Shown here in pieces: positions 1-63,831 of a stretch of 64,000 bases of DNA. Source of the DNA: an uncultured Enterobacteriaceae bacterium (GTDB taxonomy: Bacteria; Myxococcota_A; UBA9042). Positions within the stretch are counted from its first letter, which is position 1, and every line of letters starts with the position of its first letter. The translations under genes were made by a program, and so were the position numbers. The notes beneath the pieces are model-generated. The model was given only the letters and a program-made list of their open reading frames with translations. It searched no databases and was not told the DNA's origin. The DNA lies in NCBI GenBank assembly GCA_964438735.1, contig CAYTLW010000007.1:8594-72593 (forward strand). Direction: 5' to 3'.

Positions 1-67
1 GGCCCCCAAAAGAGAAGGGCCCCGCGCAACAACGCGCGAGGCCCCTCGTTCTGCTCGTGGGAGCGGT

Positions 68-334
68 CTACAGGTGCTCGACGCCCTGCTTCTTGACCTT
101 GGCCTTCCACACCTTCTCGGGCAGCCACGACGGGCGCTTGGTGGGGGCGGTCACGTGCTCGCGCCATCCCTTGAAGACGTGCACGCGCTTGGTTCCGCGC
201 TCACGCAGGCGGATGTCGGTGTAACCGCGGCTCGCGGCCTTCAGGGCGGCGCCACGGGGCTGCCGGTTCGAGAAGACGATGTCGCTGTCTTTGCCGTCGA
301 CCATGAGAACGAAGTTTTTCTTGCCGTCTGCCAT
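68..334 (-). CDS. Non-histone chromosomal protein MC1-like DNA-binding protein (88 aa)
   Basis: Translation MADGKKNFVLMVDGKDSDIVFSNRQPRGAALKAASRGYTDIRLRERGTKRVHVFKGWREHVTAPTKRPSWLPEKVWKAKVKKQGVEHL aligns nearly end-to-end with archaeal MC1 as recalled from memory (..RNFVL..G..QPRQAALKAANRG...IRLRERGTKKVHVFKAW...AP..RP.W.PEK..K..VKK). ATG at 334 lies 6 nt after GGAGAC. The long ORF call 68..742 is an upstream in-frame extension with no start support. Confidence 0.75.
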   Translation of the reverse strand: MADGKKNFVLMVDGKDSDIVFSNRQPRGAALKAASRGYTDIRLRERGTKRVHVFKGWREHVTAPTKRPSWLPEKVWKAKVKKQGVEHL

Positions 335-837
335 CTTGTTGTCTCCGATCACCCGTACGGTGATTGTGGTTGAGTTGATTTCGGCGTCGATCCTGCTTGA
401 TCCTGTTTGAGGGATCACCTGAATGCCGGCCCGGATTGCATTTCTTGATATATGCGACCCTTCCGCTCTGTTGGCAAGTCCCAGATCAACAAAAATGTGG
501 TGGTCGTCAAAAAAAAAGTTCAACGCGCGGGCGGAGTTGTCGCGCAAGTTGACACATATTGCCATATAAGTACTTGATATTGCAGCATAAAAAGAAATGG
601 ACCGCAGTATCACGTTCTGATTCACAATCGGGGTACTGCAAGCCATTCGTGATCCGAATCCATGATCATGATGGCGCGTTTCTACGCTCAAGATGCCCCT
701 TGAACGGTGACGGGGGCGCCGATCGCGAGTCTCTGGAGACATCCTGGCACGGTGGTATGGTGCCAGCGGGGCGGCAGCAGATGTTCAAACAGCCGCCCGA
801 GGAGCCCAAGTTGTCCCCCACCAATCTTCCGCAGTCG

Positions 838-3105
838 ATGCCGCTGACCCGAAGCCCAAAGGCCCGTTTCCGCCCACCAGTGGTGGCCGCGGTGCTCGCG
901 GCGTTGATGTGTGTGGCCGCCCTTGGCGAGGCACACGCCGCGTCGGCCAAGGGCTGGAACGCCTTGCGTGCCGTGGTTCGCAAGGTTCGTGTCGGAGACC
1001 TGGCAGGGGTCGACGCGACGCTACGCAAGCTGCAGAAGAAGGGATCTGCCGACCATCGGGCCACGGCGTCGTTCGTGCTGGCGCGTGTGTTGGCGGCTCG
1101 CGGCCAGGGTGCTGAAGCACGCAAGGCCCTGCGGCGGGCCCGCGCCATCGCCAAAGTTCACCCGCCTTCGTGGGCCTGGGCCGAAGTCGAGGTGTTGCAG
1201 GCCGAGGGCAAAGAGTCCAAGGCGCTCGCGGCTCTCGAGAGGCTGCGCAGGAAGCAGCCGCGCTTTCGTTGGGCCAAGGCCGACATCACCTGGTCACGCC
1301 TGCTGGAGAAGGCAGCGTCCCCCAAGCGGAGCGTCGCAGGCGCGCTGAAACTCTACGGCAAGCGCAAGGCCTGGCTGCACCTGCCTCAGGATGAGCTGCT
1401 GGCCCGCGCGGCCCGCGGCCAGGCGGCCGTCGGCGACAAGAAGGGCGCCCGCAAGACCTGGAAGAAGCTGCTGATGAAACACCCCCACAGCGACCTGGTG
1501 GCCGTGGCGGAGAAGCACGTCGCCATCGCCAGCCTCAGTGACGCCGAACGTCTGGACCGGGCCGAACTCCTCTTCGCGCGTCGGGCCTATGAGCGATGTC
1601 GGGTAGAGAGCCTGTACCTGTGGAAGAAGAACTACCACCGCGAGAAGGTGGGCTACTTCCTCGGCAAGATCGGCTCGGAGCGCCTTCGCGACGACTACGT
1701 GAACGCCGAGATACACTTCCGGCCGGCCACCGCTGCGGGGGCGCCCTACGCCATGTTCGCGCTGAGCTCCTACGGAATCGTGCTGGGCAAGCTCAAGCGC
1801 ACCGACGAGGGCGTCAAGGCCTTCGACACCTGGCTCAAGCGCTACGGTCGATCGGTCAAACCCAAGCGCCTGGTCGAGGCACATTACGACCGGGCGCGCG
1901 TCTTGCGCACCGGTGGCCGTCCGTTGCAGGCCGCGGCCGATATGAAGCGATTCCTGCTCAGCCATCGCAAGGGCATCGACTACGGCAAGTACTGGTGGTT
2001 CGTCGGCTTCTGGACCTACCTCGGCGGCAAGTACGAGGAGGCTATCGGCTATTTCAAGCCCCTGACCCCCTCACGCAACGCCCTGGTCGGCGGCAAGGCG
2101 AGGTACTGGACGGCCAAGGCCTGGGACAAGCTGGGCAAGCGCGACAAGGCGGTCAAGGTGATGCTCCGCCTCTATCGCAATCAGCCGCTGAACTTCTACA
2201 GCGGCATGGCCGAGGAGCACCTGCGAGCATGGGGCCACGGTAAGAAGATTCCGCGCCGACCCGACCTCAGCAAGGTGCCCTATCGAGTGCCCAACGCCTT
2301 CGCCGGGCTGCCGGATGAGCCGGCCATCGCCACCGTCCGCATCGCCGCCCACCTGGGCGAGTACGACACCTTGCGGGCCGTGCTCAAGGCCAATGAGGGC
2401 CGAATCATCAAGTCGGTGGGAGCCAAGCGAGCAGCCCGCCTGAGGAGCGACCTGAGCGACGAGTTGGAGGACTTCTACAGCGACCGCAGCCGGGCCTGGA
2501 GCCGCCACCGCAAGTCCTTGCGCAGGTATCCCACCCGCAAGACGGTGCACCACTGGCGCGGCATCTATCCGCGCGCCTATCACACCCACGTGGTCTGGGC
2601 TGCGAAGCGTTATCGCGCACCGGAGTGGATGGTCTATGCCCACATGTTGCAGGAGTCCCGCTACAAGCCGTGGATGATCTCCCACGCGCCGGCCTATGGC
2701 CTGCTCGAGCTGCTCGATCGCACGGCCAGGCTGCTGGCCCTGGAGCAGAAGGAGGAGTACCAGCTGTGGATGTTGATGCGACCGTCCCACAACATCCGCT
2801 GGGGCACCCAATACCTGGGCGCGCTGTACAAGAAGTTCGACAAGCAGTTGCCGTTCGCGATCGGCTCCTATAACGGCGGCCCGATGCTCTTCGAGTACCA
2901 CCTCAATATCAGCAAGGGGCTCGACTTCGACGTGATGGTCGACGACCTCGGACCGCACGAAAGCCGCAACTACACCCGCATGGTGATTGGCCACTTCCTG
3001 CGTTACCTGGCGATCTACGAGAAGCCGGACAGGGCCGCGGAGCTGCGCAAGCAGCTGTTGTTGAAGAGCTGGCAACCGAAGTGGCTCAAAAACCCGAACT
3101 ACTGA
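838..3105 (+). CDS. Soluble lytic murein transglycosylase (Slt70-like: N-terminal superhelical/TPR-like domain plus C-terminal SLT catalytic domain), periplasmic
   Basis: C-terminal SLT motifs (ESRYKPWMISHAPAYGLLELL ... WGTQYLGALYKKFDKQLPFAIGSYNGGP). Long alpha-helical repeat N-domain. Signal peptide MPLTRSPKARFRPPVVAAVLAALMCVAALGEAHA|AS, which begins at ATG 838. ATG 757 and ATG 781 are alternative starts. The ORF as called from 559 has no signal-peptide logic. Confidence 0.8.
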   Translation: MPLTRSPKARFRPPVVAAVLAALMCVAALGEAHAASAKGWNALRAVVRKVRVGDLAGVDATLRKLQKKGSADHRATASFVLARVLAARGQGAEARKALRRARAIAKVHPPSWAWAEVEVLQAEGKESKALAALERLRRKQPRFRWAKADITWSRLLEKAASPKRSVAGALKLYGKRKAWLHLPQDELLARAARGQAAVGDKKGARKTWKKLLMKHPHSDLVAVAEKHVAIASLSDAERLDRAELLFARRAYERCRVESLYLWKKNYHREKVGYFLGKIGSERLRDDYVNAEIHFRPATAAGAPYAMFALSSYGIVLGKLKRTDEGVKAFDTWLKRYGRSVKPKRLVEAHYDRARVLRTGGRPLQAAADMKRFLLSHRKGIDYGKYWWFVGFWTYLGGKYEEAIGYFKPLTPSRNALVGGKARYWTAKAWDKLGKRDKAVKVMLRLYRNQPLNFYSGMAEEHLRAWGHGKKIPRRPDLSKVPYRVPNAFAGLPDEPAIATVRIAAHLGEYDTLRAVLKANEGRIIKSVGAKRAARLRSDLSDELEDFYSDRSRAWSRHRKSLRRYPTRKTVHHWRGIYPRAYHTHVVWAAKRYRAPEWMVYAHMLQESRYKPWMISHAPAYGLLELLDRTARLLALEQKEEYQLWMLMRPSHNIRWGTQYLGALYKKFDKQLPFAIGSYNGGPMLFEYHLNISKGLDFDVMVDDLGPHESRNYTRMVIGHFLRYLAIYEKPDRAAELRKQLLLKSWQPKWLKNPNY

Positions 3106-3113
3106 TTTGTTTG

Positions 3114-3194
3114 GGGGGCCGGGGCTCGGCCCCCAGCCAGAAAAAGTGTCATTTTTCTGGCTTCCCCACTGCATCAGGGCAGCGGCCGCTGCCC
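3114..3194. terminator. Cluster of three GC-rich hairpins between convergent genes (probable bidirectional terminator)
   Basis: GGGGGCCG-gggct-CGGCCCCC at 3114-3134. Perfect inverted repeat AGCCAGAAAAA-gtgtca-TTTTTCTGGCT at 3135-3162. Palindrome GGGCAGCGGCCGCTGCCC at 3177-3194. The cluster sits between the slt stop (3105) and the minus-strand esterase stop (3208). Confidence 0.5.
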
Positions 3195-36357: not shown

Positions 36358-39300
36358 TCAATGACCACGCACGTACATCGTCGTATTGGACCGACACGCA
36401 CAGCCGCATAACGCCCCTGGCTTGTCCTGGCAGACCGTGCCCTGGGCAGCGTTGGGGTTCTTGCCGTAGTAGGTCAGCGTCTTGTACTGCCCGCCGCCGC
36501 CGTTGGAGCAGCCCACCCCCCAATGGGGCGTCTCGCCGGAGCCCTTGCAGGTGTAGCTGCCGCCCTTGGAGCCGTTGAAATACGCGTACGAGCCCGTGAG
36601 CTGCTTGCCGCTGGACCAGCTCCACTTCAACGTGGTCTTGGGGGAGCGATACCAGCGGTTGCCATAGAGATAGAGGTACTCCTTGGTGGTATTGCCATGC
36701 AGTGACGACGCCACGTTCGGGTAGAGCTTGGTCCAGCCACCGCCGGCGACGCTCATCAAGCAGACGGCGCTGAAGGCGTCGCCGATGCCGCCGCCGTTGG
36801 GGTCGATCCAGTAGCTGCCGTTGCCCTTGGAGCTGCCGCTGTCGAGGATGTGCTTGCAGCTGAGCGCCGGGTTGGACTTGGTGCCCACCGTCTTGGGCAC
36901 GCACTTGCCGCTCTGGCACCACTTGGCGGCGCCGCAGCCCTTGCCGTTGGCGACGTTCTTGGTCGTGCAGCCCTGGCCTTTGTCGCAGCCGTTGAGCGTG
37001 CAGGGGTTGCCGTCATCGCATTTCTTGGCCGAACCCGGCTTGCAGCTGCCGCCGTTGCAGGCGTCGTTAAGGGTGCAGACGCTGCCGTCGCTGCATGGGG
37101 CGGCGTTGTTGGCGTTGATGCAGCCCTTGGACGCATCGCAGAAGTCGGTCGTGCACAGCTTGTTGTCGTTGCAGTTCTTGGCCGAGCCCGGTTTGCAGCT
37201 GCCACCGGTGCAGATGTCGTTGGTGGTGCAGGCGTTGCCGTCGCTGCAGGGCTTGGTATTGGCCTTGTGGGTACAGCCCGTAGCCGGCGCGCAGGCATCG
37301 TCGGTGCACAGCTTGCCGTCATCGCAATTCGGCGCGGCGCCCGGGGCGCATTTGCCGCCGGTACAGGTGTCCTTGAGGGTGCACTTGCTGTTGTCAGAGC
37401 AGGGCTTGGTATTGGCCGTGAACGTGCAGCCCTTGGCCTTGTCGCAGCCGTCGTCGGTGCAGAGTTCGCCGTCGCTGCAGGACTTCTTCTTGCCGGGGAT
37501 GCAGAAGCCGCCCAGGCAGCTGTCGGTCAGGGTGCAGACGTCGCCATCGCTGCACTTGGCTGAATTGGGAGCGTGCTGGCAGCCCTTGGTCTTGTCGCAG
37601 GAGTCGTCGGTGCAGACCTTGCCGTCATCGCAGACCAGCGGCGCGCCGGCCGCGCACGACTTGTCCTTGCAGGCGTCGGGTTTGGTGCAGGCGTTGCCGT
37701 CGTCGCATGGCGCCGTGTTGGCCACGTGCAGGCAGCCGTTCTTCCAGTGGCAGCCGTCGGTGGTGCAGTTGTTCTTGTCGTCGCAGACCTTGGGCCCGCC
37801 GGGCGTGCAAGCGCCGGCCTTGCAGATGTCCTTGTCGGAGCAGGTGTTGCCGTCGTTGCAGCCGGCGCTGTTGTGGGTGAAGACGCAGCCCTTGGCCTTG
37901 TCGCATGCGTCATCGGTGCACACGTTGCCGTCGGCGCAGGTCACCGGATTGCCGGGCGCGCAGGTGCCTGCTTTGCACCCATCGTTGGCGGTGCAGGCGT
38001 TGCCGTCGTCGCAGGGCAGGGCGTTGGCGGGGTGGGCGCAGCCGTTGAGGTGGTGGCAGGTGTCGTTGGTGCAAAGTTTGCCGTCGTCGCAGCTCTTCGG
38101 CTTGCCGGGCGCGCATTTGCCGGCCAGGCAGCCGTCGGACTCGGTGCAGACGCTGCCATCGCTGCACGGCGCGCCGGGTTTGGCGTGCACATGGCTGCAG
38201 CCGGTCTTGGCTTCGCATTCATCTACGGTGCAGACATTGCCGTCGTTGCAGACCAGCGCCTTGCCGGGCTGACATTTGCCAGCCGCGCAGCCGTCACCCA
38301 CGGTGCAGGCGCTGCCGTCGTCGCAGGCCGAGCTGTTGGGTGTGAAGGTGCAACCCTTGGCCGGATCGCATCCGTCGGTCGTGCACACCTGCCCATCGCT
38401 GCAGGTCACGGGTTTGGCGGCGCACTTGCCGCTGGCGCAGACGTCCTCCTTGGTGCAGGCGTTGCCGTCGTCGCAGGCGCCCGTGTTGTGCACATGGGTA
38501 CAGGCCGTCTTGGCGTCGCAGCCGTCGGTTGTACACGGGTTGCCGTCATCGCAGGACTGCTTGCCCGGCCCCTTGCATTCGGTAGCGGTGCAAGCGTCGG
38601 CCAGGGTGCAGGCGTCGCCGTCGTCGCACGCGACGCTGTTGGCCAGGTGGGTGCAGCCGGTCTTCTTGTCGCAGCTGTCGTCGGTGCAGAGGTTGTCGTC
38701 GTTGCAATCGAGGGCCGGTCCGCCCGTGCAGACACCTTTGTTGCAGATGTCCTTGGTGGTGCAGGCGTCGCCATCATCGCACGCCGGCCCGGTCTGCTCG
38801 TTGTGCACGCAGCCCTTGATCGCGTCACAGCCGTCGATCGTGCAGGTGTTGTTGTCGTCGCAGACCACCTTCGTGCCGATGCATTTGCCTTCGGTACACG
38901 CGTCGTCGGAGGTGCAGGCGTTGTTGTCATCGCAAGCGCCCGCCTGGGGCAGATGATTGCACTTGCCGGCGTTGCAGCTGTCCGCCGTGCAGACCATGTT
39001 GTCGTCGCAGACCCCCGGGTCGGCCTCGTCGGTGTTGCCGTCGCAGTCATCGTCCTGGGTGTTGCAGGTCTCGCTCACCGCAGCCGGCGCGTCGCAGGCG
39101 CCCAGGCCCTTGGCGTTGCAGGCGCGCTTGCCGGTACAGGTGCCGGCGCCATTGGTTGTGGAACAGCCGGTGACGAGTCCCAGCTCCTTGGCCCGGGCGC
39201 TGCACGGACAGGTCAGGTCGGCGCGTTGACATTGTTTGGCCTTGGCGCCACCCACGCTGACCACGTCGACGCACTGCCAGCCCTCCGGGCAGGTCACATC

Positions 39301-39846
39301 CGCGCCACAGCCGCCGCCACAGAAGGCGCCCAGGTTCTCGCCCTGCTCGCTGTAGGGCACGCAGAGGGACTTGCCGCCGCCGAGCGCGGCGCTGCAATCC
39401 GAGTCGCTCTGGCAGGGATCGCAGATGCGCGGAAAGCGCGGCACGCAGATGGACGTGGCATCGCCGGCCCCGGTGTCGACCAGCTTGCAGACGTAGTCCT
39501 CGGCGCAGTCGGTCACGCAGGTTTTGGCGCAGACCTTGCCGTCGAAGGTGTCGATGCAATAGCCCGAGTCGCACTCATCATTGCCCTTGCAGGGCTGGGC
39601 GGGCTGCTCGTCGGCGTCCGGCAGCGCGGTGCCCTGGTCGACCGGTTCGCCTGCGTCCTCATCGGCCGCATCGTTGATGACACTGTCGAAGTCCATGGTG
39701 ATGTCCGGACCCGCCGGTCCGGAGACCACGGAGTCATCGGCGGGATCCCCACAACCGGCCATGGTGCCGACGGTCATGCACAGCAGGGTGCAGAACAGAA
39801 GCATCGGGCGGGCGCCAACGGCCCGCCGGCGCGGAGTCTCGAGCAT
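36358..39846 (-). CDS. Cys-rich repeat lipoprotein (~21 Myxococcus-type cysteine-rich repeats) with C-terminal fibrinogen-related (FReD/COLFI-like) domain
   Basis: Signal peptide plus lipobox MLETPRRRAVGARPMLLFCTLLCMTVGTMAGC. Alternative ATG at 39867. G-rich Shine-Dalgarno before 39846. Repeats of CxDGNxCTxDxCxxxxGCxHxxN. C-terminus ...SCKHILDSGSSKGNGSYWIDPNGGGIGDAFSAVCLMSVAGGGWTKLY... has the hallmarks of the fibrinogen / fibrillar-collagen C-terminal fold. Confidence 0.75.
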   Translation of the reverse strand: MLETPRRRAVGARPMLLFCTLLCMTVGTMAGCGDPADDSVVSGPAGPDITMDFDSVINDAADEDAGEPVDQGTALPDADEQPAQPCKGNDECDSGYCIDTFDGKVCAKTCVTDCAEDYVCKLVDTGAGDATSICVPRFPRICDPCQSDSDCSAALGGGKSLCVPYSEQGENLGAFCGGGCGADVTCPEGWQCVDVVSVGGAKAKQCQRADLTCPCSARAKELGLVTGCSTTNGAGTCTGKRACNAKGLGACDAPAAVSETCNTQDDDCDGNTDEADPGVCDDNMVCTADSCNAGKCNHLPQAGACDDNNACTSDDACTEGKCIGTKVVCDDNNTCTIDGCDAIKGCVHNEQTGPACDDGDACTTKDICNKGVCTGGPALDCNDDNLCTDDSCDKKTGCTHLANSVACDDGDACTLADACTATECKGPGKQSCDDGNPCTTDGCDAKTACTHVHNTGACDDGNACTKEDVCASGKCAAKPVTCSDGQVCTTDGCDPAKGCTFTPNSSACDDGSACTVGDGCAAGKCQPGKALVCNDGNVCTVDECEAKTGCSHVHAKPGAPCSDGSVCTESDGCLAGKCAPGKPKSCDDGKLCTNDTCHHLNGCAHPANALPCDDGNACTANDGCKAGTCAPGNPVTCADGNVCTDDACDKAKGCVFTHNSAGCNDGNTCSDKDICKAGACTPGGPKVCDDKNNCTTDGCHWKNGCLHVANTAPCDDGNACTKPDACKDKSCAAGAPLVCDDGKVCTDDSCDKTKGCQHAPNSAKCSDGDVCTLTDSCLGGFCIPGKKKSCSDGELCTDDGCDKAKGCTFTANTKPCSDNSKCTLKDTCTGGKCAPGAAPNCDDGKLCTDDACAPATGCTHKANTKPCSDGNACTTNDICTGGSCKPGSAKNCNDNKLCTTDFCDASKGCINANNAAPCSDGSVCTLNDACNGGSCKPGSAKKCDDGNPCTLNGCDKGQGCTTKNVANGKGCGAAKWCQSGKCVPKTVGTKSNPALSCKHILDSGSSKGNGSYWIDPNGGGIGDAFSAVCLMSVAGGGWTKLYPNVASSLHGNTTKEYLYLYGNRWYRSPKTTLKWSWSSGKQLTGSYAYFNGSKGGSYTCKGSGETPHWGVGCSNGGGGQYKTLTYYGKNPNAAQGTVCQDKPGALCGCACRSNTTMYVRGH

Positions 39847-39896
39847 GATCCCCCCCTCGGTCGTCATAACAGGGTAGCGGTCTTCTGGGGGTCGGC

Positions 39897-42659
39897 TCAA
39901 GGCGCCTTGGGCACATCTTTGGCGCAACGGACTCCCAGAGCCGGATCGGTGCTCTTCTTGGGGCTGCTCTGGCGGTTGCCGGCGCGCACCTCCGCCGCCG
40001 TGCTGACCAGGCTGCCACCACGAACCACGCGGCCATCCTTGGCGGGCGCGTGGGGATCCTTCTTGGGCGACTTGCTGTACCAGTCCGCCTGGTAGCCGTC
40101 GCTGACCCACTCGCTGACGTTGCCGCCCATGTCGCGCACGCCGTAGGGACTGATGTCCTTGGCCATGGTGCCGACGCTGCGCGTGGTGCCCAGGTCGCAG
40201 CCGCCCTTGTCGACGCCGAGCATGACCGTGAAGCTGCAGTTGGCCGCCGGCTTGGCCCAGGGCCAGGTCGGGGTCAGCTTGGCGCAGTCTTTGCCCCAGA
40301 TCTCGCAGCCGCCGCGGGCGGCCTTCTCCCACTCGGCTTCGGTCAGCAGGCGCTTGCCAAAGTGCTGGCAGACGGCCACCGCCGCGTCGTGGTCGATGCA
40401 GTTCATGGGGTGCTGAGCCTTGGTCTTGTCGCCCCAGTTGCACTTGGGCAGCGGGTCCTTGGGTTTGGCGCAGTTGCCGGCGTCCACGCATTGACCGTAT
40501 TGGTCGACGGTGATCTCGAAGCGATCGATGAAGAAGGCGCTCAACTGGACCTCGTGCTGGGGTTTCTCGTCGGGTTTGCAGGCGCCATCCAGGGCGGCGT
40601 TGCAGCCCATCTGTGTCGGCCCGTCGGGCACGTAGATCATGGCCGGCGCCAGGGCCAGGCACTGGCCGTCATGGCAGATCTTGGCCGTCTCGGCCCCCGC
40701 CGTGCAGACGCTGCCGTTGACCACCGAGCCGTGGCTGCACTTGCCCTTGGGACCACAGATGTCCACCGTGCACGGGTTCTTGTCATCGCAGGCGCTGTCA
40801 ACCGCGACCAGGCCGCATTTGCCAGTGCTCGGATTGCAGGTCGTCTTCTTGCAGCCCTGGGAGGCCTCGGTGCACGCGACGGCGGACGCGGGTTTGGTCT
40901 TGCACACCGGCGGGCTCGCGGCGGTGTCGCAGTAGGGCGTGCCGTTGCAGGCGTTGCCGTCGTCGATGCAGTCCGCGTCGGCTTTGCAGGCACAGAGATC
41001 GGTGCCGCCTTTGCAGCTGCCGGCCTTGCAGATGTCACCGACGGTGCAGGGCTTGCCGTCATCGCACTTGCTCAGGTCGGCGGACTTCTTCATGGCGCAC
41101 TTGCCGGTCTTCTTGTCGCAGGTGTTCTTCTTGCACGGGCCGTCATCCTTGCCGGTGCAGACGACAACGGTGGTCGGGTTGACCAGGCAGGTGGGCGGAT
41201 TCTGCAGCTTGTCGCAGTAGAGCGTGCCGTTGCACGCGTTGCCATCCTCCTTGCTCTTGCAGTCGTCGTTGGTCTCGCAGACACAGGTATTGGTGCCCGT
41301 CAGGCAGGAGCCGAAGCCGTCGCAGGTATCGTCCACGGTGCACGGGTTGTCGTCTGCGTTGCACTGGGAGAACTTGATGGCGAATTCCGGCTTGCAGACG
41401 CCCAGCGCCGGCGCGCAGGCCATGGTCATGCAGTCGGTGGAGCCGGCCTTGGAGCAGTGAATGATCGTGCCCGGGTGGACCTTGCAGGCGCCCGCCTTCT
41501 TGTCGCAGTAGAGCGCGCCATTGCATAGATCGCCGTCGTCGAATTGCTGGCAGTCCGCGTCCTGCTTGCAGCCGCAGAGATCGGTGCCCGATTTGCAGCT
41601 GCCGTCCTCGCAGACATCGCCCTTGGTGCACACCTGGCCGTCGTCGCAGGGGGTCAGGTCGGGCTTGGCTTCGGCGGTGCATTTGCCGGACTTCTTGTCG
41701 CACAGCACGGGGGCGCAAGGATCGGCGCCGGCGCCCGGGCAGGTGACCACCGTCGCCGGGTTGATCACGCACTTCGGCTTGCCGGCGCTCAGGTCGCAGT
41801 AGAGCGTGCCGTTGCAGGTGTCGCCATCCTCTTTGCCGGCGCAGTCCGCGTCCTTGACGCAGACGCAGGTATTGGCGCCACCGACGCAACTGCCCGCCTT
41901 GCAGTGATCGCTCGCAGTGCAACCATTGCCGTCATCACAGAGCTTGGGCGGTTGGGTGTCGGCGACCGCCTTGACGAGGCATTCGCCGGTGTCCGGCTTG
42001 CACTTGACCAGCTCGCAGGCGCCGGCGCTCAGGTGGCTGCAATCGACCACCGACGCCGGATTCGTCTTGCAGTTGTAGGGCACCTCGCTGGTGTCGCAAT
42101 AGGGCTGGCCGTTGCAGACGTTCTTGTCGTCCTTGCAGTCGGCGCTGACGTGGCAGGCGCAGATGTCCGACTTCGGGTCGCCGATGCATGTGCCCTTATC
42201 GTCGCAGTTGGCGCTCTTGGTGCAGGGGTCGCCATCATCGCACTTCGACTTGGCCGGCAGCGCTTTGGCCTTGCACTGGCCCGCGGTGCAGCTCCAGACC
42301 TGGCAGCTGTCGGGCGACTCGCCGCAGTCCTTGGCCACCTTGCAGCCGCCGGTGTCGACCGGTGTCGGCGTGTCCGCTTTGACGGCGTCGCCCTGCTCAC
42401 CGTCCACCTTGTCTGCTGTATCGGCGATGTCTGGCTGCGCGCCCGTGTCGCCGATTCCATCCGACATGCTGTCGGGGGGCGTGTCGGCGTCAGCGTCGTC
42501 GCCAGTGCCATCAACCACCTTGCCGCCGTCGTTGCCCGCGAAACCGCTCTCGTCGGGGACCATGTCCCAGCACGCCGGCAGCGCCAGCGTCGCCAGCAGC
42601 AGCCCGGCCCATCGGATCCCTGCACTGTGCGCGCATCGCGGTGTCTTCATGGCGTTCAT
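39897..42659 (-). CDS. Cys-rich repeat lipoprotein with C-terminal FGE-sulfatase (SUMF1/formylglycine-generating-enzyme-like) domain
   Basis: Signal peptide plus lipobox (MNAMKTPRCAHSAGIRWAGLLLATLALPAC). ~8 larger modules (CxCxxDADCAxxEDGDxCNGTLYCD...C.xNPxTVVxC) alternating with short CDDGxxCTxxDxC repeats. C-terminal domain with FGE motifs (MIYVPDGPTQMGC..., GKRLLTEAEWEKAARGG, GGNVSEWVSDGYQADWY, VVRGGS). Start ATG overlaps the stop of the upstream gene (TGATG). Confidence 0.75.
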   Translation of the reverse strand: MNAMKTPRCAHSAGIRWAGLLLATLALPACWDMVPDESGFAGNDGGKVVDGTGDDADADTPPDSMSDGIGDTGAQPDIADTADKVDGEQGDAVKADTPTPVDTGGCKVAKDCGESPDSCQVWSCTAGQCKAKALPAKSKCDDGDPCTKSANCDDKGTCIGDPKSDICACHVSADCKDDKNVCNGQPYCDTSEVPYNCKTNPASVVDCSHLSAGACELVKCKPDTGECLVKAVADTQPPKLCDDGNGCTASDHCKAGSCVGGANTCVCVKDADCAGKEDGDTCNGTLYCDLSAGKPKCVINPATVVTCPGAGADPCAPVLCDKKSGKCTAEAKPDLTPCDDGQVCTKGDVCEDGSCKSGTDLCGCKQDADCQQFDDGDLCNGALYCDKKAGACKVHPGTIIHCSKAGSTDCMTMACAPALGVCKPEFAIKFSQCNADDNPCTVDDTCDGFGSCLTGTNTCVCETNDDCKSKEDGNACNGTLYCDKLQNPPTCLVNPTTVVVCTGKDDGPCKKNTCDKKTGKCAMKKSADLSKCDDGKPCTVGDICKAGSCKGGTDLCACKADADCIDDGNACNGTPYCDTAASPPVCKTKPASAVACTEASQGCKKTTCNPSTGKCGLVAVDSACDDKNPCTVDICGPKGKCSHGSVVNGSVCTAGAETAKICHDGQCLALAPAMIYVPDGPTQMGCNAALDGACKPDEKPQHEVQLSAFFIDRFEITVDQYGQCVDAGNCAKPKDPLPKCNWGDKTKAQHPMNCIDHDAAVAVCQHFGKRLLTEAEWEKAARGGCEIWGKDCAKLTPTWPWAKPAANCSFTVMLGVDKGGCDLGTTRSVGTMAKDISPYGVRDMGGNVSEWVSDGYQADWYSKSPKKDPHAPAKDGRVVRGGSLVSTAAEVRAGNRQSSPKKSTDPALGVRCAKDVPKAP

Positions 42660-43583: not shown

Positions 43584-46500
43584 CTACTTGCACACCCCGG
43601 CGCTGCAGGTCTTGCCGCCGCCGCAGGGGCTGTTGTCGGCCAGGTTGCCATGCTTGCAACCGGCAGCTGCGGTGCAGGTGTCCAGGGTACAGGGATTGGC
43701 GTCGTCGCAGCCCACCGAGGGCTTGTCTGCGCAGGCACCGGAGGCCGTACACTTGGTCGTGCCCCAGGCGTCGAGGCGCTGCAGCCAGCCAGCGGCCTTG
43801 TTGCCGCTGTCAGGCCGCTTGCCCACCAGGGCCAGGCCTTCCTTGAAGAGCGCGACACCGTGGGCCACGTCTGTTCCCGAGACACCAATAGTTGCGGCGC
43901 TGCGCACGTTGCCCTGCGCGTCGATGTGGGCGAGCAAGGCGTCCATCCCACCGCCCGGGCCGGGGTTCTGGTGGCCCACCGCGAACACGCCCAGGGGCGC
44001 TGCGGGAGCCAGGGCCAGCAGCAGGTTGTCGTTCGCGCCGGTGACCTTCGCCTGCCAGAGCAGGCTGCCGGAACCATTGATGCGCCAGACGCTGCCCACC
44101 TTCTTGTTGCCGCCGGCCACGTCGTGGAAGTAGCCCGCCGCGTACACGCCGTTGTCGCCATCGGAGAGGGCCGCCAGGCAGCCGTCATTCTGCGCGCCCC
44201 CGAAGGTCTTCAGCCATGACTGAGTGCCGCTGCTGGTCACGTTGAAGACCAGGCAATCGGTGCCTCCGGCACCCTGCGTCGTATCGCCGACGACGATCCC
44301 GTTGGTGCCGTGGGTCACCACGCCGCGCGCGGCCTGGTCACCGGTGCCACCGAACGTCTTGTCGAAATCCGAATTGCCGATGTCGGAGATCCGCAGCACG
44401 TACGCGTCGTAGCCGCCGCCGCCCTTGCTGTTGGTGCGACCGACCAGCAGGTGTTTGTCGGGGGCACGCCAGGCGGCCGCGAAGGCCTCCTCATCCTTGT
44501 CCCCCTCCTTGCTCTTGTCGAAGGCGAGCGTGCCATCGGCGTTGACCTTCGCCCACCACATGGCCTTGCCTTTGGCGGCGTCCAGGTTCTTGCTGCCGAA
44601 GACCAGGTGGCCAGCCTTCGCGGCGGCGATGACACCCCAGGCCACGTCGTCCTTGGCGCCGCCCCAGGTCTTCTCCTGGGTGATGGTGCCTGCGGAGTTG
44701 ACGCGCAGCAGCCAGGCATCCGCGCCGCCGGCTCCCTTGGACGTGGTGCTGCCCACCGCCACCAGCCCGCCGCCGTCGCGGGTGACGCCATGCAGCACAT
44801 CATCGCCAGAGACGCCGTAGAGTTTGGACAGCAGCTTGTCCTGCTTGCTCGCTTGGCAGACGCCGTTGGCGAAGCAGGTGCCAGGCAACGAACAGGCGTC
44901 GCCATCGGCGCAGTCGCCGGTCGCGTCGGCGTGGCTGCACACGCCCTTGTCGCAACCATCCAGCAGGCAATCCTTGCCGTCGTCGCAATCGGACGCCGAC
45001 TTGTCGGCACAACCCGATGACACGTCGCACGTGATATGGCCCCAGGCGTCCAGGCGGGCGACATGGATCTCCTCGTTGCTGTTGCCCGGCTGCGACTTGC
45101 TGGTGGTGACCACCGCGGGCGCGCCGTCGTGGGCCAGGCTGAGATCCCAGCCCCAATCCTCGCTGGCGCCGCCGACGTACTGCGTCCAGCGCGTGGTGCC
45201 GTGCAGATCGGTCGACACCACGTAGCCGTCCTCCTTGCCCAGATCGCCGTCCTTGTACGTGCCGACGGCGAAGACATTGTCGCCGACCCCCAACCGGACA
45301 CCGCGCAGGTTGTCATCGCCGTTGCCGCCGACGGTCTTGCTCCAGCGAACGCCGCCGGCCGCGTCGACCCGCAGCAGCCAGCCATCGATGCCGCCAGCGC
45401 CGAACGACTTGGTCGCCCCTGCCAGGGCGAAGCCGCCGTCGGGGAAGCGCGCCAGGCCGTAGCCCCACTCCTGGTCGCTGCCGCCGTAGTAGCGTCGCCA
45501 GCGTTCGCGGCCATCCCGATCGGTGCGCAGCAGGATCATGTCGCGGCTCTTGGAGATGCCGGCCTCGCTCTCGCCGATGATGGCGAAGCCGTCCGGCAGG
45601 GCGACCACATCATGGGCCCGGTCGACCTTGCCGCTGTAGCCCCAGGTCCGGCTGAAGAGCTTGTTGCCGCTGTTGCTGAAGGCGACCGTCAGGCCGTCCG
45701 TGCTGCCGGTGGCGATGTAGCCGACCGCGAAGAGGGCGCCGTCATCTCGCAACGCCACCGCGTGACCCCGGCTGGTGATCTCGCCGGTGACATGACCCTT
45801 GCTCCAGATCTTGCCGCCGCTGGCGTTGACTCGCATGACCATCAGCACCGGATCCTCGTCACCCAGGCTCTCGCTGAAGCCGGTGATGGCGTAGCCGCCA
45901 TCGCTCAACTGGACCAGCCCGAAGCCGTGCTCCTGGTCCTCGCCATTGGACAGGTCCACCGCCCACTTCTGCGTGCCGGCGCGATCGAGGTGGATCAGTC
46001 GCGCATTGCCATCCTCGCCGGAGCCGCCGCCGACCAGGGTGAATCCGTCGGCCGTCGTGACGATGTCGCGTCCCCAGCGCCGACTGGAGTGCGACGAGAA
46101 GGTCGAGAAGAGGCGCGGCTTGTTCAGGGTGGCGCACTTGCCCGAGCTGCAGACGCCGCCTGCCGAGCACACATTGCCGTCCTCGCACGCGCCGGCCAGG
46201 GCCGTGTATTTGCAGCCGCCGTTGGCCTTGTCGCAGCTGTCTGCGGTGCAGCTGTTGCCATCGCTGCAGATCTTCGGCTTGCCGGATGCGCAGGCGCCGG
46301 CGCTGCAGGCGTCTCCCACCGTACAGGCGTCGCCGTCGTCGCATGAGGCCGTGTTGTTGGCGAACTGGCATCCCTTGACCACGTCGCAGCTGTCGGTCGT
46401 GCAAGCGTTCTTGTCATCGCAGGTCTTCGGTGAGTTGCCCACGCACTTGCCGCCGTTGCAGGCGTCGATCTGGGTGCACACGTTGCCGTCATCACACGCT

Positions 46501-49500
46501 TTGGTGTGGTTGGTGAAGACGCAGCCCTTGGCCTTGTCGCAGACGTCGTCGGTGCAGGTATTGCCGTCGTCGCAGGTCACCTTCTTGCCGCCGCAGGTGC
46601 CCCCGCTGCACGCATCCGAGGCGGTGCAGGCGTCGCCATCGTCGCAGGTGGCGGTGTTGTTGACCTGCTTGCAGCCGGTGGCCTTGTCGCAGCTGTCGGT
46701 GGTGCAGACATTGCCGTCGTTGCAATCGGGTGCCTTGCCGCCCACACAGTTGCCGCCGCTGCAGGTATCGGCTGTGGTGCACGCGTCGGCGTCGTCGCAG
46801 GCGGCCGTGTTGTTGACGTGCACGCAGCCTTTGGCCTTGTCACAGCTGTCGGTGGTGCAGACCTTGCCGTCGTTACAGCTGGGCGCGCCACTGCCGACGC
46901 AGGTGCCGCCCTTGCAGCCGTCGGTGGTGGTGCACCCGTCACCGTCGTCGCAGGCCGCGGTGTTGTTGACGTGCTGGCAGCCCTTGGCCGGATCGCAGGA
47001 GTCGGTGGTGCAGACCTTGCCATCGCCGCAGTTCGGCGCCGGGCCGCCCTTGCAGGCGCCGCCGGAGCAGGCGTCGTTGAGCGTGCACTTGCTGCCGTCA
47101 TCACAACTGGCGCTGTTGTTGCTGTACACGCAGCCGGCCGCCTTGCTGCACGAGTCCGTCGTGCAGCCGTTGCCGTCGTCGCAGTTGGGTGGCTTGCTGC
47201 CGGAGCACGACCCGCCGGCGCAGACATCCACGGTGGTGCACTTGCTGCCGTCGTCGCAGGGCGCGGTGTTGTTGGCGGTCACGCAGCCCTTGGCTTTGTC
47301 GCAACTATCGGTGGTGCAGACCTTGCCGTCATCACAGACCGGTGCCTGACCGCCCACGCACTTGCCAACGCTGCAGGTGTCCTTGGTCGTACAGGCGTTG
47401 CCGTCGTTGCAGGGCGAGACATTCACGGTGTTGACGCAACCGATGGCCGCCTTGCAGCTGTCGGTCGTACACGGGTTGCCATCGCTGCAATCAGCTGCCG
47501 AACCAGGATCGCAGGCGCCGCCCTTGCAGAGGTCGCCGACCGTGCACTTGCTGCCGTCTGAACAGGGGTTGCCCGTGTTCTTCGCGCTCAACTTGCACGC
47601 CCCCGTCTTGGCGATGCACACATTGACCACGCAGGTCGTGTTTTGGGACGAATCGCAGGTGACGATGGTCTTGGGATCGATCTTGCAGGCATAGGGCGCC
47701 TTGGACGTGTCGCAGATCAGGGTGCCGTTGCAGGGGTTGCCGTCTTCCTTGGCGGCGCAATCGCTGTTCTTGGTGCAGGCGCACTGGTTGGCGCCCGACT
47801 GACAGCTGCCGCCACTGCATTTGTCGCCCGACGTGCACACGTTGTTGTCGTCGCAGGTGGCCGAATTGGCCGCGTGGGTGCAGCCCTTGGCTTTGTCGCA
47901 ACCATCGTTGGTGCAGGGGTTGCCGTCGTCGCAGGAGGGGGCTCCGCTGCCGACGCAGCCGCCCGATTTGCAGGTATCGGTGAGCGTGCACTTGCTGCCG
48001 TCATCGCACGGCTTGGTATTGGCCCCGTGAGTGCAGCCCTTGACGGCGTCGCAGGCGTCGTCGGTACAGGCGTTGTTGTCGTCGCAGTTGATGGCCACGC
48101 CCTTGCAGACGCCGCCGCCGCAGGCGTCGGACTTGGTGCAGACCGTGCCGTCGTCGCACGGTTTGCCGTTGTGGCCGTGGCTGCAGGCGCCGGTCTTGAC
48201 CCCGCAGCTGTCGTCCGTGCAGGGGTTGTTGTCGTCGCATGACTTGGCCTTGCCGGCCACGCATTTGCTGGCGGCGCAGCTGTCGCCGATGGTGCACTTG
48301 TTGCCATCGTTGCAGGGCTGTTTGTTGGCCACGTGTGAACAGCCGCTCTTGATATCGCAGCCATCGTTGGTGCAGGGGTTTCCATCGTCGCACTTGACGG
48401 CCTCGCCGGGCACGCAACTACCCGCCGCGCACGCGTCCCCCGAGGTGCAGGTGTTGCCATCATCGCAGGGCGCGGTGGTCGCGACATTGCTGCAACCGAC
48501 CAGCGGCTTGCATTGATCGGTGGTGCAGGCGTTCTTGTCGTTACAGCCGAGCGCCGCGCCTGGCGCGCATTTGCCGCCCTTGCAGCCGTCGTTGGTCGTG
48601 CACTTGTCGCCGTCGTCGCATGCGCCACCGCTGGCGGTGAAGGTGCAGCCCTTGGCTTTGTCGCAGCTGTCCGCGGTGCAGACCTGGCCGTCATTGCACA
48701 ACAAGGACTTCCCAGGTTTGCAGAGGCCCAGATAACAGGTGTCGGCGGCGGTGCACACGCTGCCGTCGGCATCGCATGATTTGCCCTCGTTGCGCGGCAG
48801 CAGCTTGCACTTGCCGGTCTTGGCGTCGCAGGTATTGACCCGGCAGGTGCTGTTCTTGGCCGCCGAGCAGGTCACGATGGTCTTGAGGTCGACCACGCAG
48901 ACGAAGGGCGCCTTGGCTTTGTCGCAGCGCAAGGTGCCGTTGCAGACGTTGCCATCCTCCTTGGCCTTGCAGTCGGCGTCTTTTTCGCATCCACAGATGT
49001 TTCCGCCGGCCTGGCAGGCGCCCGCCTTGCAGGTGTCGCCCGCCGTGCAGGGGTTGCCATCATCGCACTTGGCGGTCGATGGGCTGTGCACGCAGCCCTT
49101 GAGCTTGTCGCAGGCGTCGGTGGTGCACAGCTTGCCGTCATCGCAGGAAGTGGGTTTGCCGGGCACGCATTTGCCGCCGGAGCAGGTATCGCCCACGGTG
49201 CAGGCGCTGCCGTCGCTGCAGGAGGCGCTGGCAGGGCTCTGCAGGCAGCCCTTGTCGGTGTCGCAGGTGTGCTTGGTGCACGGGTTGCCATCCTCGCATT
49301 TGACCGATGTGCCGACGCAGCCGCCCGCCTTGCAGGCATCGGACGATGTACAGGCGTTGCCGTCGTCGCAGCTGCCCGCCTGCGCCTTCGTGGAGCACTT
49401 ACCGCTGTTCTTGAGGCAGGTGTCGATCGTGCACGGGTTGCCGTCGTCGCAGACTTTGGCCTTGCCCGCCACACACTTGCCGCCGGTGCAGCCGTCCCCG

Positions 49501-52007: not shown

Positions 52008-55000
52008 TTGCACACCCCCGCCGAACACTTCTTGCCATCACCGCAGTCGCTGCCGTCGGCGTAGGTCTTCTTGACGCATCCCGTCGACGGCGTGCAGCCG
52101 CTCTTGGTGCAGGGGTTGTTATCCTCGCAAGCTGTGGCCTTGACCGCGCCGCACTTGCCGGCCGTCTTGCAGTCCGTATGGCCCCACGAGTTGATGCGCA
52201 GCAGCCAGGCGTCGCCACCGCCGGCGCCGAAGGTGTTGGTCAGCCCGGCAGCCAGCGTGTCCTCGCCCAAGGTGACGGCGGCCTTGCCCCAGTCTCTGCC
52301 CTTGCCGCCGATCCAGGCCGACCAGCGCGCTGTTCCATCGCTGCCGACGCGATACCACCACAGCGCCGAGGTGGTCGAGGCGGAGCTGTATCGTCGCTCG
52401 CCGACCATCACCCAGCCGCCGGGCATGGCCGTCAGGCCCCAGGCGGTGGTCTGGTAGCTGCCGCCGGTGCCGTAGGTCTTCTCCCAGAGCAGCTTGCCGC
52501 TGTCGTTGACGCTCGCCAGCCAGGCCTTGCGATTGCCGAAGACCACGTCGCGGCTGCCGGCCACCACCACGGCACCCTTGACAGCCGCCACCGCATGGGC
52601 GCGATCGTCGAGCTTGCCGGCACCGAAGCGCTGCGCCCAGGCGAGCTTGCCCGCGCTGCTGCTGCGTATGACGAACGCCTGCCTGCCGATGGTGAAGGAC
52701 TGGGTCCAGCCGACCGCCACCACGTCGCCCTGGCTCGTCTCCACCACGTCGTGGGCTTCGTCCTTTGCGGCGCCGCCGTACTGCAGCGACCACATGAAGG
52801 CGCCTGCCTTGCTGAAGCGCAGAACGTCGGCCTTCTCCTTCTTGCTCACCGCGGTGTGACCGGCGACCAGCAGGTCCCCGTTGGCCGCGGCATGTACCGC
52901 CTGCAAGCCGTCCTTGCCCGAACCGCCACGATAGGTCTGCCAGACCTTGCTGCCATCGGTTTTGGCCTTGTACAGCCACATATCTTCCTTGTTCTTGCCG
53001 ATCTTGGTGTCCGACTGACCGACCATCACCAACGCCCCGTCGGAGGTGGCAGCCAGGTCGTTGAAGCCGTCCTTGCCCGCTGCCGTGCCGAAGAACTTGC
53101 TCACCTTGGCGGTGCCCGTGGCTGTGGCGACGACCAGGTAGCCATCGGCATCGCCGCCGGCGGTGGAGCGGCTCGTTCCGGCCAGCGCGAACGTGCCATC
53201 AGCCAGTGCGACGACACCGCCAGCTTCGTCCAGGCCCTTGCCGCCATGGGCCACCGAGAACAGCCGACCGACACCAGAGTCGTAGCAGGCCCCCGCCTTG
53301 CATCGGCCGATGTTGCACGAGCTCACATTCGGCTGGCACGGCGTGCCCAACTGGTTGACGACCACGCAGCCCTTGGCGTTGTCGCACTTGTCGTCGGTAC
53401 AGGCGTTGCCGTCGTCGCAACTGACCGGCGCGCCGGGACTGCAGCTGCCGCCACCACAACTGTCGCCCTTGGTGCAGCTGTCGCCATCGCTGCAGCTGGT
53501 GTTGTTGTTCACATTCTGGCAGCCGACCGCCTTGTCGCAGCTGTCGTCGGTGCAGCTGTTGCCGTCATCGCAGTTGGGCGGCTTGCTACCGACACAGGAA
53601 CCCGCGTTGCAGTAGTCGGCGGTGGTGCACTTGTCGCCGTCATCGCAGTTGCTCGTATTGTTGACGTTCTTGCACCCTGAATCCGACTGGCAGCTGTCTG
53701 TGGTGCACGGATTGCCGTCGTCGCAATTCTTGGCCGGTCCGCCGGCGCATTTTCCCTTCGAGCAGACATCTTTGGTCGTGCAGACGCTACCATCGTCGCA
53801 GGCGTCGCTGTTGTTGACCGGCTTGCATCCCGTGGCGCCGTCGCAGCCATCGGTGGTGCAGGGATTGCCATCGTCGCAATTCGGCGGCTTCGAGCCGACG
53901 CACGCTCCGGCGGCACACTTGTCCACGGTCGTACATTTATCGCCGTCGTCGCAGTTCGCGGTGTTGTGGACCTGCTGGCATCCCTTCAGCTTATCGCAGC
54001 TGTCGCTGGTACAGGCATCGCCATCGTCGCAATTGGGAGCGCTCGCACCCACGCACTTGCCAGCGGCACATTTGTCTACCGTGGTGCACTTGCTGCCGTC
54101 GTCGCAGCCCAGCGAATTGGCGGGGTGGGTGCAGCCGGTCGACACATTGCAGCCGTCGGTGGTGCACGGGTTGCCATCATCGCAGTTCGGCGGCTTGCTG
54201 CCGCTGCATGAACCGCCCTTGCAGGCGTCGACCGTGGTGCACTTGCTGCCGTCGTCACACGACGCGCTGTTATTGGCGTGCGTACATCCGGAGACCTTGG
54301 CGCAGGCGTCCGACGTGCACGGATTGCCGTCATTGCAATCGGGCGGGGTGCTGCCCTTGCAGGCGCCGCCTTTGCACGTGTCGACTGTGGTGCACTTGTC
54401 GCCGTCGTCGCAACCCGCGCTGTTGGCCACGTGCTTGCAGCCCGTCGCTGGCGAACAGCTGTCATCGGTGCACGGCTTGGCGTCGTTGCAGTCGACCTTG
54501 GCGCCAGGCTGGCAGCTCTTGCTGGCGCATTTATCATTCGCCGTGCACTTGCTGCCGTCGTCACAAGGCGAGGTGTTGGCGACGTGCGTGCAGCCGCTGA
54601 GCTTGTTGCAGCCATCGTTGGTGCAGGGGTTGCCATCATCACACGACAAGGCGCTGCCCTTGATGCAGGCGCCCGAGGCGCACGCGTCCTTGACGGTGCA
54701 GACGCTGCCGTCGGCGTCGCAGGGTCCGCCTTCATTGCGCGGCGTCAGGGCGCACTTGCCGGTCTTGGTGGCACATACGTTGTGCTTGCAAGCCGTATCG
54801 CCGCTACTGGAGCAGGTGATGACGGTCTTCGGGTCGACCTTGCACGCATAGGGCGGCTTGGACGTGTCGCAATACAACGTGCCGTTGCAGACATTGCCGT
54901 CCTCGGACGCTGCGCAATCGGCGTTCTTGATGCACGCGCAGGTGTTCGTGCCCGGCTTGCAGACGCCGTTGACGCAGGCGTCCGGCGTGGTGCAGGGATC

Positions 55001-59197: not shown

Positions 59198-59331
59198 CAG
59201 CCCATAGCCCCAACACGCCAGAGTCGGTCCGATCAACCTACTCTCCGCCCGAACCGGCAGCAATTTTTCGCGCGCGAGCGCTCGACCGCTGTTCACTGGA
59301 CCAGGGGCGCACCCTGAGCGATTCTCCCGGC

Positions 59332-63198: not shown

Positions 63199-63831
63199 AT
63201 GAAGCAGCCGCCCGCCTGCCTGCCGCCCGCCTTCTTTCGGCGCGACGTGCTCGACGTGGCGCGGGACCTGCTGGGCGCCACCCTGCTCAGCCGGGCTGGT
63301 GGCGCCCTGGTGCGCATGCGGGTGATGGAGACCGAGGCCTACCACGAGCGCGAACGAGGCGCCCATTGCCACGGCGGCAAGCGCACGCCGCGGACCGAGG
63401 TGATGTTCCGGGCCGGCGGGGTGTCCTACATCTACTTCCTGTACGGCATGCACTGGAACTTCAACGTCGTCACCGGGCCGGCGGACGTCGGCCAGGCGGT
63501 GCTGATCCGCGGCGCCGTGCCCTTGGGCGACGAGGCCGACCTGGCGCTCGTTCGCCAGCGCCGGGGCTGGGGTCCAGGCGGGAGGCAGCCGAGTCGGCGC
63601 GTGCTGGGCGACCCACGGCGCTGGTGCGACGGGCCGGCCAAGCTCTGCCAGGCCCTGGCTTTGACCGGCGAGCACAACCGGCGACCGCTGACGCCGGACG
63701 AGGCGGTCTGGTTCGAGCCCGGCGCCGCGGTGGCCGAAGCAGATGTGGTTCGCGGACCGAGGGTCGGCATCGACTACGCCGGCGACGACGCGTTGTTGCC
63801 CTGGCGATTCCGCTGGATGGACCCCCGCTGA
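63199..63831 (+). CDS. mpg: DNA-3-methyladenine glycosylase (MPG/AAG family)
   Basis: Collinear with the Mpg family (VMETEAYHERERGAHCHGGKRTPRTEVMFRAGGVSYIYFLYGMHWNFNVVTG). Confidence 0.8.
   Translation: MKQPPACLPPAFFRRDVLDVARDLLGATLLSRAGGALVRMRVMETEAYHERERGAHCHGGKRTPRTEVMFRAGGVSYIYFLYGMHWNFNVVTGPADVGQAVLIRGAVPLGDEADLALVRQRRGWGPGGRQPSRRVLGDPRRWCDGPAKLCQALALTGEHNRRPLTPDEAVWFEPGAAVAEADVVRGPRVGIDYAGDDALLPWRFRWMDPR

Follow-up and report, generated by a model that had tools for sequence, protein, structure and literature searches.

An archaeal-type MC1 protein encoded in a bacterial chromosome: a conserved, strongly constrained gene of a probable Myxococcota lineage

In the literature, the MC1 fold is exclusive to Archaea and eukaryotic viruses (Nasir et al. 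2017, PMC5671483). Within archaea MC1 is lineage-restricted, and Marine Group II (MGII), in whose subgroup MGIIa it is highly transcribed at sea (Damashek et al. 2021, PMC9723583), probably gained it by HGT (Hocher et al. 2022, PMC7613761). Outside archaea, an MC1-like protein has been described in Mimivirus (gp275) and MC1 domains in giant viruses (bioRxiv 10.1101/2024.02.22.580433). A short gene near the left end of a 64-kb window (the whole stretch of DNA analysed here, 64,000 nucleotides) therefore raises the question of whether a bacterium can carry a true MC1, how it came by the gene and what the protein does there. We found no description of a bacterial MC1 in open-access papers and bioRxiv, and an earlier report elsewhere is possible. 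The first-pass annotation had called MC1 essentially unknown in bacteria, which agrees with this literature but not with the databases, where bacterial-type MC1 occurs in at least 18 species-level bacterial MAGs and NCBI already labels some of the proteins, by automatic annotation, 'chromosomal protein MC1 [Myxococcales bacterium]'.

The gene occupies positions 68-334 of the minus strand (ATG at 334-332, TAG stop at 70-68) and encodes a basic, single-domain protein of 88 aa (MADGKKNFVLMVDGKDSDIVFSNRQPRGAALKAASRGYTDIRLRERGTKRVHVFKGWREHVTAPTKRPSWLPEKVWKAKVKKQGVEHL) with a mass of 10.1 kDa, a pI of 10.65 and 21 Lys and Arg against 9 Asp and Glu residues, in keeping with the small (~90 aa), strongly basic, single-domain design of MC1. 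In a profile search, the product matched the Pfam family MC1 (PF05854) over profile positions 2-95 of 96 with 102.3 bits (E 1.8e-29), far above the gathering cut-off of 23 bits. No other Pfam family matched the 88-aa product at E <= 1; the HU/IHF family (PF00216), in particular, gave no match. The sole match of phmmer against the PDB was Methanosarcina MC1 (1t23/2khl/2nbj; E 2.2e-23; query residues 5-88 on chain residues 3-92), with an identity of about 53-55%. Both searches bear out the earlier claim that the product aligns with Methanosarcina MC1 along its whole length, and the residue pattern then given reproduces the phmmer/PDB alignment almost exactly. These data support the identification of the product as a true archaeal-type MC1 in a bacterial chromosome.

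The predicted structure has the MC1 topology. An AlphaFold2 model based on a 35-sequence alignment (pLDDT 91.6) contained strands b1 (residues 6-12) and b2 (15-23), a helix (26-35), strands b3 (40-45) and b4 (50-62), an arm (63-73) and strand b5 (74-87), and this order of elements corresponds one-to-one to that of published MC1 (PMC6776556). A Foldseek search of the model against the PDB did not return the MC1 NMR entries. As phmmer does retrieve them, we ascribe this miss to the structure library or the NMR models. NMR complexes have defined 14 DNA-contact residues of MC1 (PMC6776556), and 12 of them are identical or conservatively replaced in the window protein. The eight identical contacts are Q23, R25, H56, R71, P72, W74, K81 and K86 in MC1 numbering, which correspond to Q25, R27, H52, R67, P68, W70, K77 and K82 of the window protein; four others are conservative (R4K, K22R, K54R and I89V). 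The remaining two are changed (Q26G and K91H), and therefore the sequence or shape preference may differ from that of Methanosarcina MC1. The helix-b3 loop, a variable element of MC1 that takes no part in the DNA interface, is 6 residues shorter than in Methanosarcina MC1. With Gly in place of the DNA-contacting Gln26 and a shortened loop, the protein is predicted to be a biochemical variant of MC1.

Proteins of the MC1 family bend DNA sharply as monomers and have a preference for bent DNA, minicircles and four-way junctions. By analogy with Methanosarcina MC1, the window protein would act as a monomer, its five-stranded sheet and beta4-beta5 arm lying on the concave side of the DNA. K6, R50, H52 and K82 would clamp the narrowed minor groove, R27 would neutralise phosphates across the compressed major groove, and P68 and W70 would insert or intercalate in the minor groove to produce a sharp kink (V-turn). 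Many such bends could compact the chromosome and modulate transcription. We infer that the protein binds and bends DNA, is abundant and acts genome-wide, and a function in the nucleoid appears likely.

The gene forms a monocistronic unit with bacterial-type expression signals. Read from the sequence, a Shine-Dalgarno motif GGAGA (342-346, minus strand) lies 7 nt 5' of the ATG, and SD-like motifs (GGAGG-, GGGAG- or GAGG-like) stand just 5' of the ATG in most of 20 bacterial loci. An upstream alignment of eight species (A1) contains conserved blocks at a putative -10 hexamer CATATA (449-454, minus strand; CATAC/TA in relatives) and, separated from it by a 17-nt spacer, a putative -35 hexamer TTGCCA (472-477, minus strand), at which CTTGC is invariant in all eight species. 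A strict sigma-70 consensus scan of positions 1-900 found no promoter, so that the assignment rests on this conservation. Upstream of the -35 hexamer lie T-tracts (490-517, minus strand), comprising ATTTTTG at 496-490, conserved as a TTTTT block in A1, and a T9 run at 517-509, and these are UP-element-like and possibly intrinsically curved. The position of the -10 hexamer would place the transcription start at about 442 and thus give a 5' UTR of ~108 nt (335-442, minus strand), whose RNA structure is unremarkable (fold z-score -1.0). Beyond the gene, 20 nt past the stop codon, an intrinsic terminator (14-47, minus strand) consists of a 15-bp GC-rich stem with the loop TTGT followed by TCTTTT; at the corresponding position after MC1, two related loci (L002 and L003) carry terminator hairpins that differ in sequence. 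No Rfam family was matched at gathering thresholds anywhere in the 64-kb window. The description of a solitary gene with its own Shine-Dalgarno was thus accurate, given the GGAGA motif, the terminator at 47-14 and an upstream neighbour that is divergent. The gene is apparently well expressed, and the conserved promoter with its T-tracts, together with the very low dN described below, gives indirect signs that MC1 may be abundant.

Between MC1 and the divergent SLT gene lies an intergenic region (335-780) that makes up most of the only AT-rich stretch of the window. A GC scan in 200-bp windows identified 249-773 as the sole stretch below 55% GC in 64 kb, with a minimum of 0.44 against a mean of 0.666 (sd 0.035), which confirms the unusually AT-rich region of ~500 bp that had been noted beside the gene. 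Of 15 A/T tracts of at least 5 nt in the window, 3 fall in the intergenic region, whose tract density is thus 6.7 per kb compared with 0.19 per kb elsewhere in the window (~36x). Of 20 loci checked, 19 extend far enough upstream of MC1, and all 19 show an AT dip at -100 to -400. Because the dip recurs 5' of MC1 in orthologous loci, the AT-rich stretch is the promoter region of MC1 and SLT, a strong-promoter and possibly curved region, and not a foreign island.

The first-pass annotation had proposed silencing of AT-rich DNA as a possible role. This is not supported: the AT-rich stretch coincides with the promoter region of the gene itself, at a position conserved in orthologous loci, the window contains no further AT-rich island, and MC1 is a monomeric bender rather than an H-NS-like bridger. 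An H-NS-like silencer (H-NS, MvaT, Lsr2 or Rok) was rejected as an identity for the protein, as MC1 is its sole Pfam family at E <= 1, a single MC1 domain fills the 88 aa so that no oligomerisation domain would fit, and the lone AT-rich stretch is its own promoter, not an acquired island. The SELEX consensus of Methanosarcina MC1 (AAAAACACACMCCCM), a protein from which the window protein differs at two contacts (Q26G and K91H), was not matched anywhere in the window with up to 3 mismatches allowed, against an expectation of 2.4. Autoregulation through a preferred site is therefore speculation.

The surroundings of the gene are bacterial. The divergent neighbour (781-3105, plus strand) encodes a TPR protein with an SLT lytic transglycosylase domain (Pfam SLT, E 1.8e-16) and a signal-peptide-like N-terminus; it is a peptidoglycan and hence bacterial marker as well as the conserved syntenic partner of MC1. 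Beyond it follow genes for AdoHcy hydrolase (AdoHcyase), an aminotransferase, an FtsJ-like methyltransferase, DapB and NuoB/NuoH. A 69-kb ENA scaffold (L046), which agrees with the window throughout the part that was read (window position = 10335 - L046 position), extends past the window edge and there encodes LepA, a Na/Ca exchanger, a muramidase, a GAF histidine kinase and RNase J. A eukaryote-like Ser/Thr kinase (58894-61194, plus strand; Pkinase E 1e-38) fits a myxobacterial host. Three giant ORFs on the minus strand (36358-40662, 43584-52028 and 52004-59296; 1434, 2814 and 2430 aa) have as their only Pfam matches many Dicty_CTDC cysteine-rich repeats (E 1e-43 to 1e-52); their products, of a kind typical of Myxococcota, are probably secreted or exposed at the cell surface. 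The species-representative genomes that share this gene order carry the titles of Myxococcales, Myxococcota or Deltaproteobacteria MAGs, and their sources are lakes Baikal, Mendota and Erken, a creek and, for a 'STAS' MAG, what we take to be activated sludge of a Hong Kong plant; all bacterial MC1 carriers are uncultured MAGs. The host is thus a bacterium, probably a member of the Myxococcota. Two further features of the region were recorded. A ~70-nt intergenic repeat, with up to three short hairpins (GGGGCC..GGCCCC; CCAGAAAAAGTGTCATTTTTCTGG; then CCCACTGCAT..), occurs once after the SLT stop codon (window 3112-3185) and twice in the MC1-lepA spacer just beyond the window's left edge (L046 10330-10398 and 10515-10585), and looks like a REP/MITE-like dispersed element of the host genome. 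The only tRNA in the window is tRNA-Val (GAC) at 63652-63732 (plus strand).

The gene is well settled in this chromosome. Its GC3 of 0.899 lies within the range of nine neighbouring genes (0.79-0.90), the comparison that the first-pass annotation had proposed, and its codons are those preferred by the host. The divergent SLT-MC1 pair is present in 13 species-level MAGs, among which the SLT proteins share 48-65% identity, and LepA follows downstream of MC1 in 9 of these 13. The dS values of MC1 (0.67-1.03), LepA (0.79-1.20) and SLT (0.81-1.37) are equal, which indicates that the three genes diverged together. In dN, MC1 (0.06-0.18) lies below LepA (0.20-0.27) and LepA below SLT (0.33-0.51); the dN/dS of MC1 is 0.06-0.23, a rough ratio as dS is near saturation. 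Protein identities parallel the dN trend (MC1 78-89%, LepA 67-75%). These data show that MC1 has been inherited vertically under very strong purifying selection. Matching GC3, conserved synteny and a dS equal to that of the neighbours also indicate that the transfer is old and the gene fully domesticated, and MC1 is neither a recent import nor an assembly artefact.

Next to the question of residence stands that of origin. MC1 is a small family, with 276 clusters at 50% identity (E <= 1e-3) among 1.84 billion representatives. Among the best 116 clusters at 90% identity, 86 are clearly of the bacterial type, 1 is of the MGII type and 29 are intermediate, and the intermediate sequences are found in bacterial and archaeal contexts alike. 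The closest archaeal relatives of the bacterial MC1s are those of Poseidoniales (MGII), with 63-70% identity. Position 26 of MC1 is Gly in all 157 bacterial, MGII and intermediate sequences and Gln or Asn in all 15 outgroups, and the short helix-b3 loop is common to the bacterial and MGII MC1s inspected. The 'PRG' subfamily defined by these two characters (Gln26 to Gly, loop 6 residues shorter) is common only to bacteria and to MGII and related Thermoplasmatota. Diagnostic residues separate the two groups within it (YFVLM, QVFAS and GPAWLP in MGII versus NFVL, IVFSN and RPSWLP in bacteria). A broad NJ tree of 104 sequences that included fragments gave support of 5-64% and was discarded for a focused analysis of 57 sequences (87 columns, 200 bootstraps), in which bacteria and MGII group together with 87% support and MGII alone with 92.5%, and bacteria alone with only 57.5%. 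The phylogeny proposed at the outset thus joins bacteria and MGII and leaves the monophyly of the bacterial sequences weakly supported. As for the horizontal acquisition from archaea suggested earlier, the transfer between domains stands, given the 87% split, but it is not recent, as GC3, synteny and dS show. Judged from the sequences, the 'PRG' subfamily records an ancient inter-domain exchange. Because every other MC1 branch is archaeal, transfer from archaea to bacteria is the favoured direction, which we consider fairly probable.

Several bacterial lineages carry MC1, and those that are named are all Myxococcota. On one contig (P0042, locus L055; ENA ERZ24794639 NODE_4008), a bacterial-type MC1 lies beside two bacterial flagellin genes (282-1112 and 1788-2618), and the contig also encodes LigA, ClpB and Ddl; the nearest relatives of LigA are proteins of Myxococcota and Deltaproteobacteria MAGs, which hints at a flagellated Myxococcota-related lineage. 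Elsewhere MC1 adjoins an RND efflux system (P0118) or a Pkinase-AAA16-TPR protein (P0106), and two loci labelled 'Rickettsiales' (L018 and L021) encode a bacterial-type MC1 flanked by TPR, thioredoxin-like and CDP-alcohol transferase genes. Two other contigs are archaeal, one of 3.0 Mb with CDC48 and AsnC-RAM (P0116) and one with a giant PA14 ORF and AsnC-RAM (P0092). Three loci labelled Salinimicrobium, Yoonia and Verrucomicrobiales (L019, L040 and L043) have flanking genes homologous to those of Poseidoniales contigs, among them a 1,724-aa ORF 96% identical to that of L023 and an integrase 97% identical to that of L022, and are therefore mis-binned MGII DNA. In most MGII loci (the L019-L044, L052 and L058 set), MC1 lies downstream of an ORF of ~1,700 aa (PA14/Laminin_G_3 in L058), and L052 and L058, two related loci from archaea, have a stand-alone AsnC-RAM gene immediately upstream of MC1. 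Unusual architectures occur elsewhere in the family (P0249, P0250, P0251 and P0330), comprising proteins of ~290 aa with a long N-terminal domain (AMMECR1-like by eye) and a C-terminal MC1, and proteins of 1,681 and 3,012 aa with ~10 MC1-like stretches each.

Taken together, we consider it likely, with a probability of about 0.7, that the gene encodes a bona fide MC1-family protein and that this small, basic monomer acts in the nucleoid of aquatic Myxococcota as a nucleoid-associated protein. That an archaeal fragment was mis-assembled or mis-binned, or that a very recent and non-functional import was caught, is brought to mind by the public MC1 contigs labelled 'Yoonia', 'Salinimicrobium' and 'Verrucomicrobiales', which are truly mis-binned. 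However, an identical MC1 protein is encoded on 13 independently assembled contigs from several samples, the same gene order recurs in MAGs of unrelated studies (Baikal, Mendota, Erken and activated sludge), the gene has the GC3 and codon choice of its host and the dS of its neighbours, and the Shine-Dalgarno, promoter and terminator are bacterial, so that an artefact is for practical purposes refuted. Marginally less improbable, yet still very unlikely, is that MC1 was shuttled between MGII and bacteria as cargo of a virus or mobile element and serves that element, for instance in genome packaging, as with Mimivirus gp275. The MC1 domains of giant viruses (bioRxiv 10.1101/2024.02.22.580433) and the MC1 relatives encoded on two IMG/VR contigs lend this idea some substance, but both IMG/VR proteins are distant (58% and 32% identity) and of the archaeal Gln26 type, and the window gene has a fixed position among housekeeping genes with no integrase, transposase or phage gene flanking it. 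As the IMG/VR scan gave only these two distant archaeal-type MC1s, we rejected a viral vector.

A domesticated MC1 might instead be a local or condition-specific DNA-architectural factor and not a major constituent of the nucleoid, for example by autoregulating its own curved A/T-tract promoter together with the divergent SLT gene, or by protecting DNA in stress or stasis. The gene does adjoin the one stretch of the 64 kb that is rich in AT and dense in A/T tracts, A-tracts and bent DNA are preferred by MC1 (PMC6776556), the adjacency of SLT and MC1 has been kept across deep divergence, and the DNA-binding proteins of Methanosarcina acetivorans affect recovery from stress and stasis, not routine growth (bioRxiv 10.1101/2025.11.24.690127). 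Set against this are the lack of any SELEX-type site in the window at up to 3 mismatches and the position of other bacterial MC1s beside flagellins and LigA, RND efflux genes or kinases, unrelated contexts which indicate that the linkage to SLT is not required. Moreover, conservation beyond that of LepA and the strong-promoter features fit an abundant general protein better. We therefore regard a specialised role as unlikely, and prefer the general nucleoid-associated protein. The bolder proposal, that MC1 is among the principal chromatin proteins of a whole planktonic Myxococcota lineage, partly or wholly replacing bending by HU/IHF, and that the gene was exchanged with MGII, possibly from bacteria to archaea, is tentative, and the odds are somewhat against it. 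In a tblastn search with E. coli HupA, IhfA and IhfB, HMfB and Sso Alba, no match was found in the window and all loci, which amount to ~1% of a genome.

Comparison with known systems places the protein closest to archaeal MC1. It shares with Methanosarcina thermophila MC1 (1T23, 2KHL and 2NBJ) the family, length class, charge, predicted topology and monomeric single-domain design, and differs from it in the shorter loop, in Gln26 to Gly and Lys91 to His, and in the bacterial host; its gene has a putative sigma-70-like promoter, a Shine-Dalgarno and an intrinsic terminator. MGII MC1 is nearer still, of the same 'PRG' subfamily with the same short loop, a sister in the NJ analysis and from the same planktonic habitats, but it belongs to another domain of life, and its gene follows the ~1,700-aa ORF whereas that of the window's clade lies between SLT and LepA. 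Mimivirus gp275 and the MC1-like proteins of phycodnaviruses are examples of an MC1 domain working outside archaea; these proteins are distant and oligomeric with disordered extensions, whereas the window protein is a canonical stand-alone MC1. HU and IHF are likewise small and basic and bend DNA sharply through hydrophobic residues of a beta-arm in the minor groove, but their fold is unrelated and they are dimers, whereas MC1 is a monomer. A precedent for a chromatin protein from another domain in a predatory 'delta-proteobacterial' lineage exists in bacterial histones, which Hocher et al. in 2023 reportedly found, with proteomic and structural evidence, to be a nucleoid constituent in Bdellovibrio bacteriovorus and others. 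The histone fold is unrelated to that of MC1, and the MC1 case is known from sequence and a model.

MC1, in the literature an archaeal protein with outliers in giant viruses, is here a conserved and constrained core-type gene of a bacterial clade, and a lineage of bacteria probably uses this archaeal tool for part of its DNA folding. Bacterial histones were a first example of chromatin proteins that crossed from one domain to another and were retained, and MC1 adds a second. The closest relatives of MGII MC1, whose origin had been left open, are now identified, and MGII and these bacteria share the water column; had the gene passed from bacteria to archaea, these bacteria would be the donors in the HGT by which, according to Hocher et al., MGII gained MC1. 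If MC1 is indeed among the principal chromatin proteins of the lineage, its nucleoid would be the first in bacteria to be organised around a non-histone architectural protein of archaeal type. The locus also makes it possible to ask, in a concrete system, whether nucleoid proteins of one domain can stand in for those of another, in line with the deletion-and-rescue idea of Hocher et al. 2022 (PMC7613761).
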